Source of the DNA: Lactimicrobium sp. | Lineage (GTDB): Bacteria > Bacillota_I > Bacilli_A > Erysipelotrichales > Erysipelotrichaceae | DNA length: 64,000 nt | Direction: 5' to 3' (one strand) | NCBI RefSeq assembly: GCF_036453445.1 | Contig: NZ_JAZHUX010000001.1 | In this document: positions 33,441 through 41,283 of the stretch, in pieces | How the letters are laid out: each line of letters opens with the position of its first letter | How positions within the stretch are numbered: the stretch's first letter is position 1 | Notes under the pieces: model-generated | Told to the model about the DNA's origin: nothing | Database searches by the model: none | What the model saw: the letters and a program-made list of their open reading frames with translations, nothing else | Program-made: the position numbers and the translations under genes

Positions 33441-34966
<1,526 letters not shown>

Positions 34967-35091
34967 GACTTGTGCTCACCTGATTCTTACAATCAGGATT
35001 TCTTATAAACTCATTGACGTTGTTTGTGTTCTAATCTTTCTGTTCAGTTTTCAAAGATCTGCGCTCTTCCCTTCTCGGAAACAGCTTGTTT

Positions 35092-35130
35092 ATCTTACCT
35101 CTTCAGTTTATTTTGTCAACAACTTTTTTT
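35092..35130 (-). promoter_or_regulatory. rrn promoter (TTGACA-16-TAAGAT) with A-rich UP element
   Basis: -35 at 35119-35114, -10 at 35097-35092. A TCTTTGAAAACTGAACA boxA/processing-stalk motif lies downstream (about 35041-35057) with related copies in both spacers. Confidence 0.75.
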
Positions 35131-35223
35131 CGAAGTTTATGACTGCTGATCCATGATCATTTCCTGATTCCTGAATCCCTTCTGAAGAAGCTTCATGATC
35201 TTACCCTTTTTCCCTCCTATCTG

Positions 35224-35913
35224 TCAACTTCTTTTTTTACAAATTACATTCCGCTGTGGACGTATGACCATTTCACAGGGACAGATCTCTGCCCGCATTG
35301 CAAGAAGATCATGTACAGCAAGGGCGATATCCTCAGATTCCAGATGACAGTCATTCTCTTTGCCAGGCTGGAAATCCGCATGGCGGTACAGATCCGTTTC
35401 TGTCAAATCCGGCATCAGGCAGATTACCTTCATGCCATGCTTTCTTTCTTCTTCAAACAGCGATCTGGAAAAAGCCAGCAGGCCTGCTTTGGCAGCACCA
35501 TACGCAGCCGCATGCGGACTGGCACCAAGTGCGGTCACACTGGCAACATTGATGATCGTGCCATGATTTTCCCGCAGCCTTCTGCCATAGTACCGGCATA
35601 AGCGCATCGGCTCTTCCAGATCCAGGCGCACCATCTGCTGAATCTGACTGTCTTTCATAAACTCATGCAGCCCGTAATATGCACAGCCGGCATTGTTCAC
35701 AAGCAGAGACAGATCAAGATCCAGCTCATCAAGACAGGATAGAACATTCTGATCATCCAGCAGATCGAGGATGATGGGATGAAAGGAAGACGGATATGTC
35801 TGCTGTTGGAAGGTGCGGCCAATGCCCCATACTTCCCAGCCATCTTTACATAACTGCATGGCAATGGCTCTGCCAATGCCATGGCTTGCGCCTGTCACAA
35901 GTGCCTGCTTCAT
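35224..35913 (-). CDS. SDR family oxidoreductase
   Basis: VTGASHGIG, LVNNAG, NVAS, YGAAK. Confidence 0.9.
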   Translation of the reverse strand: MKQALVTGASHGIGRAIAMQLCKDGWEVWGIGRTFQQQTYPSSFHPIILDLLDDQNVLSCLDELDLDLSLLVNNAGCAYYGLHEFMKDSQIQQMVRLDLEEPMRLCRYYGRRLRENHGTIINVASVTALGASPHAAAYGAAKAGLLAFSRSLFEEERKHGMKVICLMPDLTETDLYRHADFQPGKENDCHLESEDIALAVHDLLAMRAEICPCEMVIRPQRNVICKKRS

Positions 35914-36926
35914 GATTCCCTCCAGAAAAAGATCTTCTCTTTACCAATGCCATGTTCTGCCAGAGCTTCTACAATGCTATCTGTCATCTCTGTCTCAATC
36001 CGGGCAGGCAGATGATAAAAGCCCTTTTCACATACGTACGGATACTGCAGAACGGCACTGTCAGGATACTGCCGGCGCATTCTGGCCATATATACCTTTG
36101 ACAGCCGGAAACTGCCAAGCGAAAAATCCCGCACTTTCTGCAGATCAATTGCCGTTGCAATCTTTTCCACAAGATCCTGATATGCCTGCTTCTGATCCGG
36201 ACACATCAGCACCGGATCAAAGCAGATCCGCACCGGAAAGCCCAGGTCCATTGCCTTCTGTAACATAGCAAGCCGGGCAGAAAGAGAAGGTGTTCCCTTT
36301 TCTTCTTTGGCAATTACCGTTTCCGGAGACAGCGTAAAAGCCAGAATCGTCCTGTCTGAAACTGTCATCTTCTGCCATGATGTATCAAACGTTCCCTTGG
36401 TCCGGATTTCAATCGTCAGATTATCATGTTTCCGGACAAACTCACTCCATGCCCGGCCATAGCCAAGGATACTTTCCAAAGACAAGAGGTCTGCATCATA
36501 CGAAACACAAAGATACAAAGAATGTTTCTGCAGTTCTTTCTCCACTGCATCAAAATAATCTTCCAGATTCACGAATACCGCCAGGTTTCCACCCGGATAC
36601 ATGCCCTTTAAGAAACAATAGCTGCAGTCATAGACACAATTCATCACACAGGAAGAATACATGAAATACGGATTGCCAAAGGACTGACAGACCGGTGAAC
36701 CAGGATACAGGAAACCATCTTTTTTCCTGGCCAGGATCAGCTTCTGGCTTTTGTGCTGCAGGCTATAGGACTGCCGGGGTCTGTCAAACACATCCCGATA
36801 ATCCTGAATCATGATGATATGGGCATTGGGAAAATGAGACAGGATAGAATCTGCCTGTGTCCGGATGCCTTCTTCCACATAGATCTCAGTGAACTTTGGC
36901 TGTAACAATGTCTCTTTCAAGCTCAT
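35910..36926 (-). CDS. Spore-photoproduct-lyase (SplB)-family radical SAM protein
   Basis: CVYDCSYC (CxxxCxxC); IEIRTK, AFTLSP, EEKGTPSLSARL, GFPVRICFDPV follow the SplB-family pattern. Confidence 0.8.
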   Translation of the reverse strand: MSLKETLLQPKFTEIYVEEGIRTQADSILSHFPNAHIIMIQDYRDVFDRPRQSYSLQHKSQKLILARKKDGFLYPGSPVCQSFGNPYFMYSSCVMNCVYDCSYCFLKGMYPGGNLAVFVNLEDYFDAVEKELQKHSLYLCVSYDADLLSLESILGYGRAWSEFVRKHDNLTIEIRTKGTFDTSWQKMTVSDRTILAFTLSPETVIAKEEKGTPSLSARLAMLQKAMDLGFPVRICFDPVLMCPDQKQAYQDLVEKIATAIDLQKVRDFSLGSFRLSKVYMARMRRQYPDSAVLQYPYVCEKGFYHLPARIETEMTDSIVEALAEHGIGKEKIFFWRES

Positions 36927-37713
36927 GCAGCACCTGCTTTCCCTGTTCCTTATCCCTGACTTCTGCCGACAGCACCTTTTTTACAAAACGATCTGTATCA
37001 ATGCCGGCCGCATGCCCATAGCGCAGCAGCTGGGCAATCTTGGCACGCATCGTGGATGTTGCATGCAGCTTCTCAGCTAATGCATTGATGATTTCTTCAT
37101 GATCTGTTTCTGTATTCTCTGAAATCAACTCCTGATATGCCAGCAGCTTTTCAATAAGCGCTTCCAGCATCGGTGCATACTGCAAAGACAAATCATGCAG
37201 GACCTGCAGCGTGATCTTTCCATGACCGTCATCTGATACAAAACGCACAAAGAACAACTGATGCGGTCCCATCACTTTGCCTGCAGCTGCCACAGCACCT
37301 GCACATTCCATCTCATAGATACCATGGGTTTCATCCATTTGTGCATCCTGCTGTTCATACAGCTGATATCCGGAAAAAAAGCCTGTCAGTGGAAGCACTG
37401 TCTCCAGCAGTAAATCCGGATAATATGTCCGATGAGTAATGGTATCGGTAATACTTTCGGCCTGATACATGCCTGGCTTCAGACCAGCTGCACAGCCATA
37501 CCACAGCAGGATGTCCCCATTGCCGGCTTGCTCTTTTTCCAGCAGTGTGCCAATGGATGATGCCGCATTGAGCTGCCCGGTTCCACACACAGCACATTTC
37601 AGCTTCTCATTGGAAAAAAGCTGAAGACCGCGGACACCTGCCTCTTTCTTCAGCTGCATTTTCTCAATCAACGGACGAACTTCCTCATACAATGCCGATG
37701 CAATATACAGCAT
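36886..37713 (-). CDS. Purine nucleoside phosphorylase / MTA-SAH nucleosidase-like protein with C-terminal helical extension
   Basis: ALYEE, CGTGQLNAA, YGCAAG, YEMECAG, VRFVSD follow the PNP_UDP fold; SD AGGAGG. Confidence 0.7.
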   Translation of the reverse strand: MLYIASALYEEVRPLIEKMQLKKEAGVRGLQLFSNEKLKCAVCGTGQLNAASSIGTLLEKEQAGNGDILLWYGCAAGLKPGMYQAESITDTITHRTYYPDLLLETVLPLTGFFSGYQLYEQQDAQMDETHGIYEMECAGAVAAAGKVMGPHQLFFVRFVSDDGHGKITLQVLHDLSLQYAPMLEALIEKLLAYQELISENTETDHEEIINALAEKLHATSTMRAKIAQLLRYGHAAGIDTDRFVKKVLSAEVRDKEQGKQVLHELERDIVTAKVH

Positions 37714-37726
37714 GAGCCACCTCCTG

Positions 37727-38767
37727 TCAGCGGATGATCAATGGCATCCTTTCATCCAGGCCGCAAAGCCCAAGCCACTGCCGGAACTGTTCAAGCAGTG
37801 ACACTGCCTCATCCCTGCCTTCTGAGCACACTGAGACAATCTGCGTTTCCTCCGGCATGACAATCACTCTTGCCAGCATCTGCTGTGAGTGCCTTGTTGT
37901 CATCACAAGATGCAGCGGATAGGTCCTGTTTTCCATTTCTGCCTCAGTATCTTTCAAGGTCAATCCTTCCGGCAGATCATCTTGCAGCAGATATTCCCGG
38001 ATCATACCGCCGGCATCCAGTGCAGCAATCTCAAAGTAATTCACTTCTTCCAAAGTAAGCCCGCAGGCCGGCGCATTGCGCCTTGCCTTTGTACGGGATT
38101 TAGCAGCCAGAATCTTTTCAATATCTTCCGGCTTGATGCGGTGGCGGCCAGCCTCAATCAGCTGGGCACTCATCATCCGTACCATATAGCGCAGAAAACC
38201 TTTGCCGCAGTATGTAATCGTAATATGACCGTCATATTCTTGCAGATCAATCGAAAGAATTGTCCTGGTCTGATCCGGATACTCACTTAACGGCGAAGAA
38301 TTCAAAGACGTAAAGTCATGAGTGCCGACAAGATACTTTGCAGCTTCTTTCATTGCTTCAACATCCAGTTTGATCGGACACTGATACTCATAGTCTTTGG
38401 TAAAGACATCATAGGGACCGATATTGATGCGGTAGGCATACTTCTTCCATCTCACATTGTAGCGGGCATGAAAGCGGAACGTCACAAGACGGACATCCAG
38501 AATATGGATATCATCCGGCAGAAAGGCATTGATCGCACCCATCCACTTGCGTTCCTTCATTTCCCGCTCGGTGTCAAACATGAACACCTGCATGCGGGCA
38601 TTGACACCCGCATCCGTTCTGCCCGAGGCAATGATATTTGTCTTTTTTCCGGTAATTCTTAACAAGGCAGCTTCAATATGTTCCTGAATGGAAGTACCCA
38701 ATGTCTGTGACTGCCAGCCATCATACTTTCCACCCATATACTCCACAACACAGCGGTAGCGGTTCAT
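37727..38767 (-). CDS. truA: tRNA pseudouridine(38-40) synthase with about 100-aa C-terminal extension
   Basis: SGRTDAGVNA, FHARY, GTHDFTS, GKGFLRYMVR, APACGLTL. Confidence 0.95.
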   Translation of the reverse strand: MNRYRCVVEYMGGKYDGWQSQTLGTSIQEHIEAALLRITGKKTNIIASGRTDAGVNARMQVFMFDTEREMKERKWMGAINAFLPDDIHILDVRLVTFRFHARYNVRWKKYAYRINIGPYDVFTKDYEYQCPIKLDVEAMKEAAKYLVGTHDFTSLNSSPLSEYPDQTRTILSIDLQEYDGHITITYCGKGFLRYMVRMMSAQLIEAGRHRIKPEDIEKILAAKSRTKARRNAPACGLTLEEVNYFEIAALDAGGMIREYLLQDDLPEGLTLKDTEAEMENRTYPLHLVMTTRHSQQMLARVIVMPEETQIVSVCSEGRDEAVSLLEQFRQWLGLCGLDERMPLIIR

Positions 38768-39564
38768 ATCACGTATGCCAGCAGAATCATCAAAACAAGC
38801 ACACCGCAGGCACCGGCAATAAAAAGCCAGTCTGAAGAATGCATTTTCAGAATCTTATAACGGGTGCGCGGCTCACCAGGCGCATAGCCTCTGGCTTCCA
38901 TGGCATTGGCCAGATCCTCTGCTCTCTGGAACGCACTGACAAACAAAGGCACAATCAAAGACAGGATGGCAACGATCTTCTCTTTCATCGTTCCTTCCTT
39001 CATATCCACACCGCGGCTTTCCTGTGCCTTCATGATACGCAGTGTCTCATCAATCAGATCCGGAATAAAACGTAAGGCAATCGATATCAGCATCGCAATC
39101 TCATGAGCCGGTACATGAATCACCGTAAACGGCTGCAGCAGATCCTCAATGCCCAGTGTCATATCCAGCGGCTTGGTCGTTGCCGTCAGACAGGTTGTGA
39201 TCATGATCATCAATAACAGACGCACAGCAATATAGGCGGTCTGAGAAAGCGCACCGGTATACAGGCCCCACTTGCCAATGCCAAACAGACGGATGCCATC
39301 CTTGATGACAAACGAGTTGACAATCAGCAGGAAAACCATCATGAACAGCATCGGCTTCATGCTCTTCCAGACATAGGAAAAGCTGAGCTTGCCAATCAGG
39401 ATCTCACATGTTGCAACCGCAAAGATGATGGCATAGCCAAGCCATCCCGCCGGGAAGAAAATTGCCACCAGCATGATTAACATGGCCATGATCTTAGCCC
39501 GCGGATCCAGCTTATGAACAGGTGAATCCAGAGGAATATAACGTCCCAGTGTAATGTTATTCAT
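38764..39564 (-). CDS. ecfT: ECF transporter transmembrane component T
   Basis: LGRYIPLDSPVHKLDPRAK; IALRFIP; QESRG; AMEARG. Confidence 0.95.
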   Translation of the reverse strand: MNNITLGRYIPLDSPVHKLDPRAKIMAMLIMLVAIFFPAGWLGYAIIFAVATCEILIGKLSFSYVWKSMKPMLFMMVFLLIVNSFVIKDGIRLFGIGKWGLYTGALSQTAYIAVRLLLMIMITTCLTATTKPLDMTLGIEDLLQPFTVIHVPAHEIAMLISIALRFIPDLIDETLRIMKAQESRGVDMKEGTMKEKIVAILSLIVPLFVSAFQRAEDLANAMEARGYAPGEPRTRYKILKMHSSDWLFIAGACGVLVLMILLAYVI

Positions 39565-40414
39565 GTTTCTTCACCTGCCTGGCAATGCAGTCTGCCAGTG
39601 CTTCTATATCCACAATATCATCATCCACCTGGAAGCCCTTCGCCTTCAGGCCGTCCTTCATCTGTACAATCGCAGGCGGTACAATGTTCAGGCTCTCACA
39701 GATCGAACCGTCTTTAAAGAATTCTTTCACGCTCGTATGCAGGCGGCATTTGCCATCTGCCATCACCACAACCTCATCACAATAATGGAATACCTGCTCC
39801 ATGTCATGAGACACAACAAGCACCGTCTTGCCCATTTTATTCAGCTTGGAAAACAAAGACATCATTTCCACAGTGCCCCGGGGATCCAGACCTGCCGTCG
39901 GCTCATCCAGCACCAGAATCTTTGGATCCATAGCCAGAATACCGGCAATGGCAACCCGCCGCTTCTGTCCACCTGACAATTCCAGCGGACTGCGCTCATA
40001 CAGTGCTTTATCAAAGCCAACCAGCTGCAGTGCCTTCTCTGCCTTTTCAACCGCTTCTTCCTCACTTGCCCCAAAGTTCTTCGGTCCAAACGAAACATCC
40101 TTCAGCACCGTTTCTTCAAACAGCTGATACTCCGGAAACTGGAAAACAAGGCCGACATCCCCGCGCAGAGACTTCAGTCCCTTGGGACGTGACCCAGCCT
40201 CAATCTTACGGTCCAGAACATATACTGTTCCCTTTGTCGGCAGCAGTAAGGCATTGAGATGCTGAACAAGTGTGCTCTTGCCAGATCCGGTCTGGCCGAT
40301 GATGGCCGTCATCTTTCCCTCCGTCAAAGAAAGTTCCAGATCATTGAGCGCCGTATAGGCCATCGGCGTCCCTTCGCTGTAAATGTGAGTTACATGTTCG
40401 AACTGTATCGGCAT
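39557..40414 (-). CDS. ecfA2: ECF transporter ATPase A2
   Basis: GQTGSGKST, FQFPEYQLF, LSGGQKRR, DEPTAGLDP. Confidence 0.95.
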   Translation of the reverse strand: MPIQFEHVTHIYSEGTPMAYTALNDLELSLTEGKMTAIIGQTGSGKSTLVQHLNALLLPTKGTVYVLDRKIEAGSRPKGLKSLRGDVGLVFQFPEYQLFEETVLKDVSFGPKNFGASEEEAVEKAEKALQLVGFDKALYERSPLELSGGQKRRVAIAGILAMDPKILVLDEPTAGLDPRGTVEMMSLFSKLNKMGKTVLVVSHDMEQVFHYCDEVVVMADGKCRLHTSVKEFFKDGSICESLNIVPPAIVQMKDGLKAKGFQVDDDIVDIEALADCIARQVKKHE

Positions 40415-41217
40415 AAATCCTCCAGCAGGCTGTCAATCGTCAGATCACGGGGCAGCACAACCCCACGCTTCACCAAAGCTTCCTGCAGTTTCAAAGAAAA
40501 CGGAATATCCAGCTGAATCTCCTTCAGCTTCTTCTCCTGACGGAAAATCTCAGCAGGAGTTCCCTGCATCACACATCTGCCCCCGGCCATGACAATCACC
40601 TGGTCACTGGACGCAACCTCATCAATGTCATGCGTAATTGAAAGAATTGTCAGTCCGCGGTCCTCATGGAGCTGCTTTGTCACCCGCCGGATTTCCTGGC
40701 GGCCCTGGGGATCCAGCATGCTGGTAGCCTCATCAAAAATCAGAATCTTCGGCTTCATGGCCAACACACCGGCAATGGCAACCCTCTGCTTCTGACCGCC
40801 GGAAAGACGGGTCGGCTCATGATCCAGATACTTCGTCATGCCTACCTTTGCCGCATACGTATCAATGATCCCCTCCATCTCATCATGCGGCACACAGTGA
40901 TTCTCCAGACCAAAGGCAATATCATCCCGTACCGTGGAGCCAATGAACTGATTGTCCGGATTCTGAAACACAACCCCAACCCGGCTGCGGATGGCATTGA
41001 GATTTTCCAGAGTCAGATCCAGACCGTCAATGGTGATTTCACCCGAAGATTTATCCAGCAGTCCCGCAATCAGCTTAGCAACTGTTGACTTACCCGATCC
41101 ATTATGGCCGATAATGGCCGTATAGCTGCCCTCTTCCACGCTAAAAGAGACGTCACGGATCGTGGGGACGCCTTCTTCATAGGAAAAGTTCAGATCTTTT
41201 ACCTGCAATATTGACAT
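40390..41217 (-). CDS. ecfA1: ECF transporter ATPase A1
   Basis: GHNGSGKST, FQNPDNQF, LSGGQKQR, DEATSMLDP. Start chosen at MSILQV. Confidence 0.95.
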   Translation of the reverse strand: MSILQVKDLNFSYEEGVPTIRDVSFSVEEGSYTAIIGHNGSGKSTVAKLIAGLLDKSSGEITIDGLDLTLENLNAIRSRVGVVFQNPDNQFIGSTVRDDIAFGLENHCVPHDEMEGIIDTYAAKVGMTKYLDHEPTRLSGGQKQRVAIAGVLAMKPKILIFDEATSMLDPQGRQEIRRVTKQLHEDRGLTILSITHDIDEVASSDQVIVMAGGRCVMQGTPAEIFRQEKKLKEIQLDIPFSLKLQEALVKRGVVLPRDLTIDSLLEDLCRYSSNM

Positions 41218-41283
41218 AGCAGGGTCATTATACACGATTGTGCAGATCACAACAGGCAAAAACACCCAAAACGCCGGCAGAGA

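Follow-up and report, generated by a model that had tools for sequence, protein, structure and literature searches.

A conserved nucleosidase, SPL-fold radical SAM enzyme, and SDR cassette of gut and oral anaerobes, with a candidate role in adenosine-centred small-molecule metabolism

In the 64,000 nt stretch of Lactimicrobium sp. DNA analysed here (the window), three genes lie between truA and the promoters of a ribosomal RNA operon, raising the question of whether they belong together and, if so, what their products do. All of the features described are on the minus strand. The first gene (36886-37713; 275 aa) encodes a nucleosidase-like protein of the MTAN fold, the second (35910-36926; 338 aa) a radical SAM enzyme with the fold of spore photoproduct lyase (SPL) and a CX3CX2C motif at C97/C101/C104, and the third (35224-35913; 229 aa) a classical SDR. 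The end of the nucleosidase gene overlaps the start of the radical SAM gene by 41 nt (36886-36926), an arrangement of translational coupling, and the radical SAM stop codon and SDR start codon overlap in an ATGA (35910-35913), with GGAGG located 5 nt upstream. A spacer of 13 nt (37714-37726), containing AGGAGG, separates the cassette from the upstream and co-directional truA (37727-38767, stop codon 37727-37729; 346 aa), the product of which matches TIGR00071 with 191.7 bits over residues 6-239 and has a C-terminal extension of about 100 aa. Directly downstream of the cassette are two tandem sigma-70-like rrn promoters (35092-35227), the first of which (TTGACA-18-TAAGAT, 35227-35198) overlaps the SDR stop codon, while the second is at 35119-35092 (TTGACA-16-TAAGAT); these are followed on the same strand by the 16S (33443-34967), 23S, and 5S rRNA genes. 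Terminator prediction gave no candidate site from the SDR stop codon to the 16S gene. The initial annotation of three tightly coupled genes, joined by the 41 nt and ATGA overlaps, 13 nt from truA, and ending at the rrn promoters, is exact on all of these points.

Comparison of 80 genome loci shows that the nucleosidase, radical SAM, and SDR genes, in this order, are the sole conserved block around the radical SAM gene. The three gene clusters of the cassette are present in 79, 78, and 76 of these loci and the next real gene cluster in only 11; the gene upstream of the radical SAM gene is the nucleosidase in 78. Having the same genes in the same order as the only conserved block is far beyond chance. 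The trio was also found among 80 metagenome loci, and overlaps similar in size to the 41 nt between nucleosidase and radical SAM genes are seen in most related loci. In some cases the two are fused into a single gene (L021, 687 aa; P0155, P0253, P0267, P0168, and P0043), including in Fusobacterium vincentii (623 aa) and in approximately 18 Fusobacterium-like metagenome contigs (619-626 aa). The SDR gene in Fusobacterium comes right after the fusion and its product is 40% identical to the SDR of the window. An MBL-fold gene follows the SDR gene there, restricted to the Fusobacterium lineage. The sole match in a search of a plasmid collection was a 2.1-Mb Fusobacterium record. In one metagenome lineage (L119-L133; GC 0.41), an acyl-ACP thioesterase gene comes after the nucleosidase and radical SAM pair and there is no adjacent SDR, therefore the reductase step is not obligatory in cis.

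The hosts include Erysipelotrichaceae and human-gut Lachnospiraceae, together with oral and gut Fusobacterium. In the tree, the Erysipelotrichaceae-type clade (14 rows, support 100) is in a polytomy with clades of Lachnospiraceae. The three genes are one self-contained functional unit, retained as a block in anaerobes from the gut and mouth that belong to three phyla. That the trio is a real unit had been proposed from the window, and the search for non-conservation failed to refute it, given its occurrence across the three phyla and the repeated fusion of nucleosidase and radical SAM genes.

The genes surrounding the cassette are not part of this unit. Co-transcription with truA had been taken as a hint of a link to RNA, which is not borne out, as truA/ecfT are upstream in only three of the 80 genome loci (L001, L014, and L016), all of the Erysipelotrichaceae-type clade, and the flanks differ freely elsewhere. 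truA is outside the conserved cassette and the cassette is not an appendage of truA. Likewise, when 134 immediately flanking genes were sorted by Pfam family, no conserved fourth partner emerged and no family occurred in more than seven loci, the commonest being Lon (seven loci) and PP-loop, rhodanese, and AhpC/TSA (five each), and there was no conserved transporter or regulator among these families. No riboswitch or leader was matched by Rfam in the 11 loci with long upstream gaps, and the Rfam matches near the cassette in the window are to rRNA alone. The absence of a conserved transporter, regulator, or riboswitch would suit an internal metabolite.

The predicted model of the nucleosidase (AF2 pLDDT 91.3) has a catalytic domain (approximately residues 1-165) and a family-specific C-terminal domain of five helices (approximately residues 169-275, about 105 aa). 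Foldseek places MTAN and futalosine hydrolase at the top (E about 1e-11), and the profile matches MTAN in the PDB with an E of 3.8e-9. Residues E11, E136, and D161, which 74, 78, and 78 of 79 sequences retain, align with E12, E174, and D197 of MTAN, the last of which protonates adenine N7. The family also has an invariant motif of its own, YPD, at 98-100. Established families capture the protein poorly: Pfam gives no match to the protein, and none to the C-terminal domain at E <= 0.01; the best NCBIfam match is to TIGR03664 (MqnB), with 25.2 bits against a cut-off of 124.7; NF004079 (MtnN) is matched by the N-terminal 80 residues only, with 20.8 bits against 169; the NCBIfam search reported no match to TIGR01704 (MtnN); and there is none to TIGR03468 (HpnG) at E <= 0.01. 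At E <= 1e-30 the family includes 1121 clusters at 50% identity. Based on fold and catalytic residues, all of which are in place, the earlier nucleosidase-like call holds, and gene 1 is considered to encode a genuine MTAN-fold nucleosidase, predicted to release adenine. The same genome has another MTAN-like gene elsewhere (226 aa; NF004079, 95 bits), therefore general clearance of 5'-deoxyadenosine is not obviously dependent on the cassette nucleosidase.

The radical SAM enzyme is related to SPL at a distance. The model (AF2 pLDDT 85.9) superimposes on SPL structure 4fhc with a TM of 0.80 (Foldseek E 1.3e-19) and hhalign against the SPL alignment gives a probability of 98.9%, at an identity of approximately 16%. 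The match to PF20903 is 52 bits, whereas those to TIGR04070 (60.9 bits) and TIGR03886 (43.2 bits) are far below the cut-offs of 400 and 437.6. The H-atom donor in SPL is a cysteine, either C140 (Geobacillus numbering) or, in Clostridium, C77, which corresponds to S76. In the cassette family C140 is kept in 79 of 80 sequences and is paired with SPL C140 by hhalign, but HMMER and three MAFFT modes pair Y143 with this position instead; in addition, the invariant C80 is three to four residues from the S76-equivalent position. The cluster cysteines (C97/C101/C104) are invariant, as is Y103, equivalent to Y96 of SPL, an adenine-stacking residue and one of the two radical relay tyrosines, and equivalents of K174 (K177), S195 (T198), and R273 (R274) are kept, the roles of the SPL residues being those described previously (PMC3467042). 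Position 105, the equivalent of the other relay tyrosine, Y98, is Tyr in 65 of the 80 sequences and Phe in the window and 14 relatives. In Bacillus subtilis SPL, the Y99F substitution results in one 5'-deoxyadenosine per turnover and abolishes SAM regeneration (PMC3742179). By analogy, SAM should be consumed stoichiometrically by the enzyme of the window clade, as Phe at the relay position leads to this expectation under either of the mechanism variants considered below.

The lesion-binding residues of SPL are R193, E268, K309, and Y339, and R304/Y305 form the tip of the DNA-flipping hairpin (PMC3467042). In the cassette enzyme the former are replaced by A196, G271 (or a gap), F303, and F334, while the hairpin tip aligns to a gap/C299 (hhalign) or C299/E300 (MAFFT auto and L-INS-i). 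The initial annotation had put forward a damaged or modified nucleoside as candidate substrate of a three-step pathway, possibly as a nucleic-acid modification. The family has a median pI of 6.5 and a net charge of -3, compared with 8.4 and +3 for SPL; together with the lost hairpin residues, this near-neutral pI argues weakly against a nucleic-acid substrate. Fusobacterium, one of the hosts, does not form spores. The initial annotation had observed that the canonical splA and spore-repair context is missing here, and this now extends to the lesion-binding residues themselves. The cassette is therefore probably not a spore-photoproduct repair system, judged by sequence, even though the labels in public records for its relatives are 'spore photoproduct lyase' or no more than 'radical SAM protein'.

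The product of the third gene matches PF00106 with 104.9 bits and contains the SDR motifs TGASHGIG and NNAG, the S125/Y138/K142 catalytic residues, and a conserved R33 after beta-2. At least 90% conservation is seen at T7-G8, G12-I13-G14, N73-N74-A75-G76, S125, Y138, and K142. The closest relatives in the PDB are FabG ketoreductases. The enzyme is a classical, FabG-like ketoreductase, probably of the NADPH type.

Taken together, it is proposed, with a probability of roughly 0.6, that the cassette is an autonomous, adenosine-centred pathway acting on a small molecule, in which an adenosine-linked compound derived from SAM is made and processed. A specific route through an adenosyl adduct can be suggested by analogy, more tentatively and at somewhat less than even odds. 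In this route, the radical enzyme would cleave SAM and the 5'-deoxyadenosyl unit would enter a product that needs processing, most likely through addition of the 5'-deoxyadenosyl radical to an sp2 carbon of the acceptor, with the adduct radical being quenched by an invariant cysteine. Adenine would then be removed by the dedicated nucleosidase, leaving a C5-linked ribosyl group, and the aldehyde of the ring-opened ribose would be reduced by the SDR to give a polyol side chain. The logic, with this type of pathway as the nearest analogue, would be that of HpnH followed by HpnG in the formation of bacteriohopanetetrol, or of MqnE followed by MqnB, the latter being the PNP/MTAN-fold partner that processes the C-adenosylated intermediate. 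In both cases known so far in which a pathway links a radical SAM enzyme to a PNP/MTAN-fold protein, the intermediates processed are C-adenosylated (HpnH/HpnG and MqnE in PMC13459092). The radical SAM enzyme of the cassette has only the superfamily in common with HpnH and MqnE, the Foldseek TM against MqnE (6xig) being about 0.46. To our knowledge no member of this fold family other than SPL has been characterised, and the chemistry of SPL is hydrogen abstraction, not addition to a double bond. Both tyrosines are kept in most members and there are invariant cysteines (C140 and C80) near both known H-donor sites of SPL, features that suit an SPL-type cycle of abstraction, scission, and hydrogen return at least as well as they suit addition. 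It is less likely than not that the cassette performs a type of radical SAM reaction not yet described for the SPL fold. Should it do so, one possibility is C-adenosylation, adenine removal, and reduction, by which a molecule of Firmicutes and Fusobacteria would acquire a C5 polyol chain derived from ribose; the reverse possibility is a radical 'de-adenosylation' with which anaerobes that have many radical SAM enzymes would repair stray 5'-deoxyadenosyl adducts.

The alternative that survives best, although itself less likely than not, retains SPL-type lyase chemistry and adds a dedicated scavenger. The enzyme would abstract hydrogen from a non-DNA substrate, beta-scission of a C-C or C-X bond would follow, and the cysteine would return the hydrogen, with the nucleosidase merely destroying inhibitory 5'-deoxyadenosine and the SDR reducing the carbonyl or enone product. 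5'-Deoxyadenosine does inhibit radical SAM enzymes as a product, an inhibition relieved by MTAN, and radical SAM dehydratases or lyases that work together with an NAD(P)H reductase are known, as in AprD4/AprD3. No by-product scavenger is known to us that is inherited along with its partner enzyme, coupled to it in translation, and fused to it repeatedly in different phyla. The largely kept SPL radical constellation (Y103, the Tyr105 of most sequences, and the C140 that hhalign aligns with SPL C140) favours this alternative, as does the stoichiometric 5'-deoxyadenosine release predicted from Phe105 in the window clade (PMC3742179), but the other MTAN-like gene of the window genome is already available for the task, and the YPD motif and extra conserved domain of the nucleosidase would be superfluous in a plain 5'-deoxyadenosine hydrolase.

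Salvage that begins with the nucleosidase is quite improbable. SAH, MTA, or 5'-deoxyadenosine would be cleaved first, after which the radical enzyme and SDR would convert the released (thio/deoxy)ribose, for example by breaking a C-S or C-C bond through radical chemistry, in place of LuxS or the DHAP shunt. The catalytic triad indicates an adenosine-type substrate and gut anaerobes rely heavily on salvage (PMC11130926), but there is no direct evidence for any sugar substrate and no preQ1 or other riboswitch or transporter is found beside the cassette. A queuosine version of salvage draws on the presence of tgt in the window genome; however, QueL (Q186P0) is under IPR006638 and not the SPL family entry, while QueK is an IPR023186 hydrolase. 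With these differences in InterPro entries and the absence of a preQ1 riboswitch and qrtT, queuosine salvage by QueK/QueL was rejected as a leading idea.

Least probable of all is an enzyme that acts on nucleic acid, with SPL-like direct reversal, or modification, of some base adduct in DNA or RNA that is not spore photoproduct, and the nucleosidase and SDR as helpers: the housekeeping neighbours truA and rrn in the window and the 'spore photoproduct lyase' names of relatives speak for it, but the SPL lesion and hairpin residues are all replaced or deleted, the charge is not that of SPL, the TIGR04070 score is 61 bits against 400, linkage to truA is limited to one lineage, hosts such as Fusobacterium are not spore-formers, and it is not obvious what a partner of the MTAN fold with adenine specificity, or a FabG-like SDR, would do on a polymer.

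A literature search found no published study of this cassette or its chemistry. The genes are present in abundant Lachnospiraceae of the human gut, in Erysipelotrichaceae, and in Fusobacterium, with the nucleosidase family alone exceeding 1100 clusters at 50% identity. Identification of the substrate would correct a widespread misannotation of the central radical SAM enzyme and would give the SPL fold a second characterised chemistry. A new metabolite derived from SAM, or a new route of repair, might also come to light in major members of the microbiota. For biochemistry, the natural fusions of nucleosidase and radical SAM enzyme are ready-made constructs.

Compared with known systems, the QueK/QueL pathway of Clostridioides difficile resembles the cassette in combining a nucleoside hydrolase with a radical SAM lyase in gut anaerobes, but it is set apart by the InterPro entries of both enzymes and has a preQ1 riboswitch and an ECF S-component, neither of which is found at the cassette. 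MtnN/Pfs shares the fold of gene 1 and the equivalents of E12/E174/D197, and differs in the YPD motif, the C-terminal domain of about 105 aa, and the low NF004079 score. For the menaquinone enzymes, futalosine hydrolase (MqnB) and Helicobacter pylori MTAN are the top structural matches of gene 1, which is nevertheless far below the TIGR03664 cut-off and has the extra helical domain, while MqnE is matched by the radical enzyme at the superfamily level only, and neither mqnA/C/D nor an mqn-type partner is among the common flanking families. The HpnH/HpnG pathway to bacteriohopanepolyols may share the same three-part logic of radical SAM enzyme, adenine removal, and reduction of ribose to a polyol, although the radical enzyme is not a homologue of HpnH, the nucleosidase does not match TIGR03468, and squalene-hopene cyclase or other hopanoid genes are not among the common flanking families. 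The closest counterpart of the radical enzyme is SplB (EC 4.1.99.14; TIGR04070; Geobacillus thermodenitrificans 4FHC/4FHD), with which it shares the full-length fold, CX3CX2C, the adenine-stacking tyrosine, the lysine that binds the SAM carboxylate (K174, here K177), and the equivalents of S195 and R273. It differs from SplB in the Phe of the window enzyme at relay Tyr98 (a Tyr in most relatives), in its low identity and sub-cut-off score, in its lost lesion residues and hairpin tip, in its near-neutral charge, and in being paired with or fused to a nucleosidase, without splA, in hosts that include Fusobacterium.

Searching species-representative genomes with a radical SAM protein profile recovered at least 580 relatives, and the best 80 loci were analysed by all-against-all clustering of their ORFs. 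Three ORF clusters are present in 79, 78 and 76 of the 80 loci, without exception in the order nucleosidase-like gene (nuc), radical SAM gene with the spore photoproduct lyase (SPL) fold (rSAM), and SDR gene; the next genuine cluster is found in 11 only. Around these loci, a Pfam tally of the 134 immediately flanking genes identified no common partner (Lon occurs seven times, and PP-loop, rhodanese and AhpC/TSA five times each) and no recurrent transporter or regulator. Likewise, no Rfam families were found upstream of the cassette in the 11 loci with long leaders. Among the best 80 loci, truA/ecfT are upstream of the cassette in L001, L014 and L016 only, all inside one Erysipelotrichaceae-type clade of the rSAM tree (14 rows, support 100). 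The ecf-truA adjacency, from which the initial annotation had drawn a hint of an RNA link, is therefore local synteny and outside the system.

In the window, ecfA1 (40390-41265), ecfA2 (39557-40414), ecfT (38764-39564) and truA (37727-38767; 346 aa) precede nuc (36886-37713; 275 aa), rSAM (35910-36926; 338 aa) and SDR (35224-35913; 229 aa), all on the minus strand. The truA stop is separated from nuc by a 13 nt spacer containing AGGAGG, nuc and rSAM overlap by 41 nt, and rSAM and SDR are joined by an ATGA overlap with GGAGG; the junctions in the initial annotation are all exact on the window sequence. The TIGR00071 match to TruA stops at residue 239, and the remaining 100 aa or so at the C terminus form an extension without a family match; TruA is similarly long in Lactimicrobium (346 aa) and Bulleidia (359 aa). 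Downstream are two tandem rrn promoters (TTGACA/TAAGAT; 35227-35198 and 35119-35092, minus strand), about 100 nt apart, then 16S, 23S and 5S, co-directional with the cassette. Because the -35 box of the first promoter contains the SDR stop codon, and no terminator-like site is predicted between this stop and the 16S, cassette transcripts may read through into the rRNA operon. Among the matches listed, the closest genome is that of Lactimicrobium massiliense, with 87% identity in the rSAM protein and identical gene order. This is the only SPL-family gene in the 1.83 Mb assembly.

The cassette was found in Erysipelotrichaceae, Lachnospiraceae and Fusobacteriota, and the nucleosidase profile matched 1121 clusters (50% identity) at E <= 1e-30. 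In some loci nuc and rSAM are a single gene, of 687 aa in L021; the cluster representatives P0155, P0253, P0267 and P0168 are fused, and P0043 is partly fused. Searched by tblastn, the plasmid collection gave a single match, to a 2.1-Mb Fusobacterium vincentii replicon in which a 623-aa fusion precedes an SDR of 40% identity to that of the window. This essentially unannotated record (NZ_CP084075.1, PLSDB 'plasmid' pSB055A) looks like a chromosome, based on size and housekeeping content. In a metagenome scan seeded with the F. vincentii sequence, its arrangement of fusion (619-626 aa) and SDR recurred on about 18 Fusobacterium-like contigs (GC 0.22-0.27), and there were also many unfused trios (GC 0.33-0.57). 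In the Fusobacterium-like loci L087-L111, fusion and SDR are followed in conserved order by genes for an MBL-fold hydrolase, a UDG-superfamily protein, 5-formyl-THF cyclo-ligase and a KpsF-like SIS-CBS protein; the MBL gene, the sole one of these neighbours checked, is confined to this lineage. In the lineage L119-L133, nuc and rSAM are followed by an acyl-ACP thioesterase in place of the SDR. The invariant core is therefore the nuc and rSAM pair, and the SDR is usual, not obligatory. The metagenome loci L119, L121-L123, L125, L127, L130 and L133 (GC 0.41) have no adjacent SDR, carry AzlC/AzlD downstream with the thioesterase, and have a GT4 glycosyltransferase two genes upstream. Four cassettes from MAG bins named Duodenibacillus (L002), Bifidobacteriaceae (L008), Senegalimassilia (L043) and Parolsenella (L060) nest within Erysipelotrichaceae- or Lachnospiraceae-type sequences, and are more likely to be on mis-binned contigs than to reflect cross-phylum transfer.

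The nuc product has no match in Pfam, and its NCBIfam matches are all sub-threshold (futalosine hydrolase, 25 bits against 124.7; MTAN, 21 against 169). Its AF2 model (35 homologues; pLDDT 91.3) best matches MTA/SAH nucleosidases and the Helicobacter pylori futalosine hydrolase in the PDB (E ~1e-11, TM 0.57-0.68), and a profile search of PDB sequences matched MTAN at E 3.8e-9. The motifs AlYcE, YDmEaaA and vSD align with AMEQE, VEMEAAA and VSDS of MTAN, thus E12, E174 and D197 of MTAN correspond to E11, E136 and D161, kept in 74, 78 and 78 of 79 family members. Two features are specific to the family: YPD at 98-100, which is invariant, and a C-terminal domain of five helices (approximately 169-275; H217, M222, Q228, Y232 and G258-K259 conserved), which has no Pfam match and in the fusions adjoins the rSAM N terminus. 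A second, divergent MTAN-like gene is present in the genome (L083, contig C11, 1438-2115, minus strand; 226 aa), aligning over the full length of NF004079 at 95 bits against 169. Neither of the MTAN-like genes found in this genome reaches a curated MtnN cut-off; there are two DeoD genes.

The rSAM protein matches PF20903 (52 bits) and TIGR04070 (60.9 bits against a cut-off of 400). Its AF2 model (pLDDT 85.9) superposes over its whole length on G. thermodenitrificans (Gt) SPL (TM 0.80, E 1.3e-19), and the following matches, PFL-activase and others, are far weaker. The family was aligned with 15 bona fide SPLs by hhalign (probability 98.9%) and three MAFFT modes, concordant on kept and lost residues except E-INS-i around 268-305, with residue roles from previous work (PMC3467042; PMC3742179). 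Based on these alignments, the cluster cysteines, R274 (Gt R273), D146 (Gt D143), the adenine contact Y103 (Gt Y96) and the SAM carboxylate contacts K177 (Gt K174) and T198 (Gt S195) are kept. The lesion contacts are replaced (R193 by A196, E268 by G271 or a gap, K309 by F303, Y339 by F334) and hairpin-tip R304/Y305 are absent. With a median pI of 6.5 and a net charge of -3 the family is near-neutral, in contrast to the basic SPLs (8.4 and +3). A separate reading of the sequence had the donor cysteine as missing, which is not secure: C140 (79 of 80) pairs with the SPL H-donor C140 by hhalign, HMMER and MAFFT place invariant Y143 there because a 3-residue gap is positioned differently, and C80, another invariant cysteine, is 3-4 residues away from the equivalent of Gt S76/Clostridium C77, an alternative SPL donor site (PMC3467042; PMC3742179). 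The family may well have an H-donor cysteine. At the position of the relay tyrosine (Gt Y98), 65 of 80 relatives, Fusobacterium and the fusions have Tyr, and the window with its clade has Phe; the Y99F variant of B. subtilis SPL retains repair and spends one SAM per turnover (PMC3742179).

The third gene encodes a classical SDR (TGASHGIG, NNAG, S125/Y138/K142), most closely related, among solved structures, to FabG ketoreductases. By general SDR rules, the conserved R33 after beta-2 suggests NADPH as cofactor.

Because the rSAM machinery for SAM cleavage is intact, its partner is equipped for glycosidic cleavage of an adenosine modified at the 5′ position, and the two are coupled, physically or translationally, across phyla, it is probable (about 0.6) that the cassette is an adenosine-centred small-molecule pathway. 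Within this reading two routes stand close together. In one, tentatively placed first, the rSAM/nucleosidase pair would process a C-adenosylated intermediate. To our knowledge, a radical SAM enzyme is paired with a PNP/MTAN-fold enzyme within a dedicated pathway in two cases, HpnH/HpnG and MqnE/MqnB, and both pairs act on C-adenosylated intermediates; we know of no enzyme assigned to ring-opened ribose reduction in the hopanoid pathway. HpnH/HpnG processes C-adenosylated intermediates (PMC13459092). An NADPH reductase would fit reduction of a ring-opened ribose, and the other MTAN-like gene would cover general clearance, which favours this adduct route. The second route, an SPL-type lyase with the nucleosidase as scavenger, is consistent with the Tyr/Cys constellation retained in rSAM, and is somewhat doubtful. 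Less likely than either is salvage in which the nucleosidase acts first, which is improbable, and nucleic-acid repair is more improbable still.

No study of the cassette was found in full-text literature searches, and rSAM relatives are publicly named 'spore photoproduct lyase' or 'radical SAM protein'. The rSAM protein shares the fold of SPL but falls outside SPL membership by its score, its lesion residues and its gene context. In fold and catalytic residues the nucleosidase is like MTAN, and it falls below every curated equivalog.
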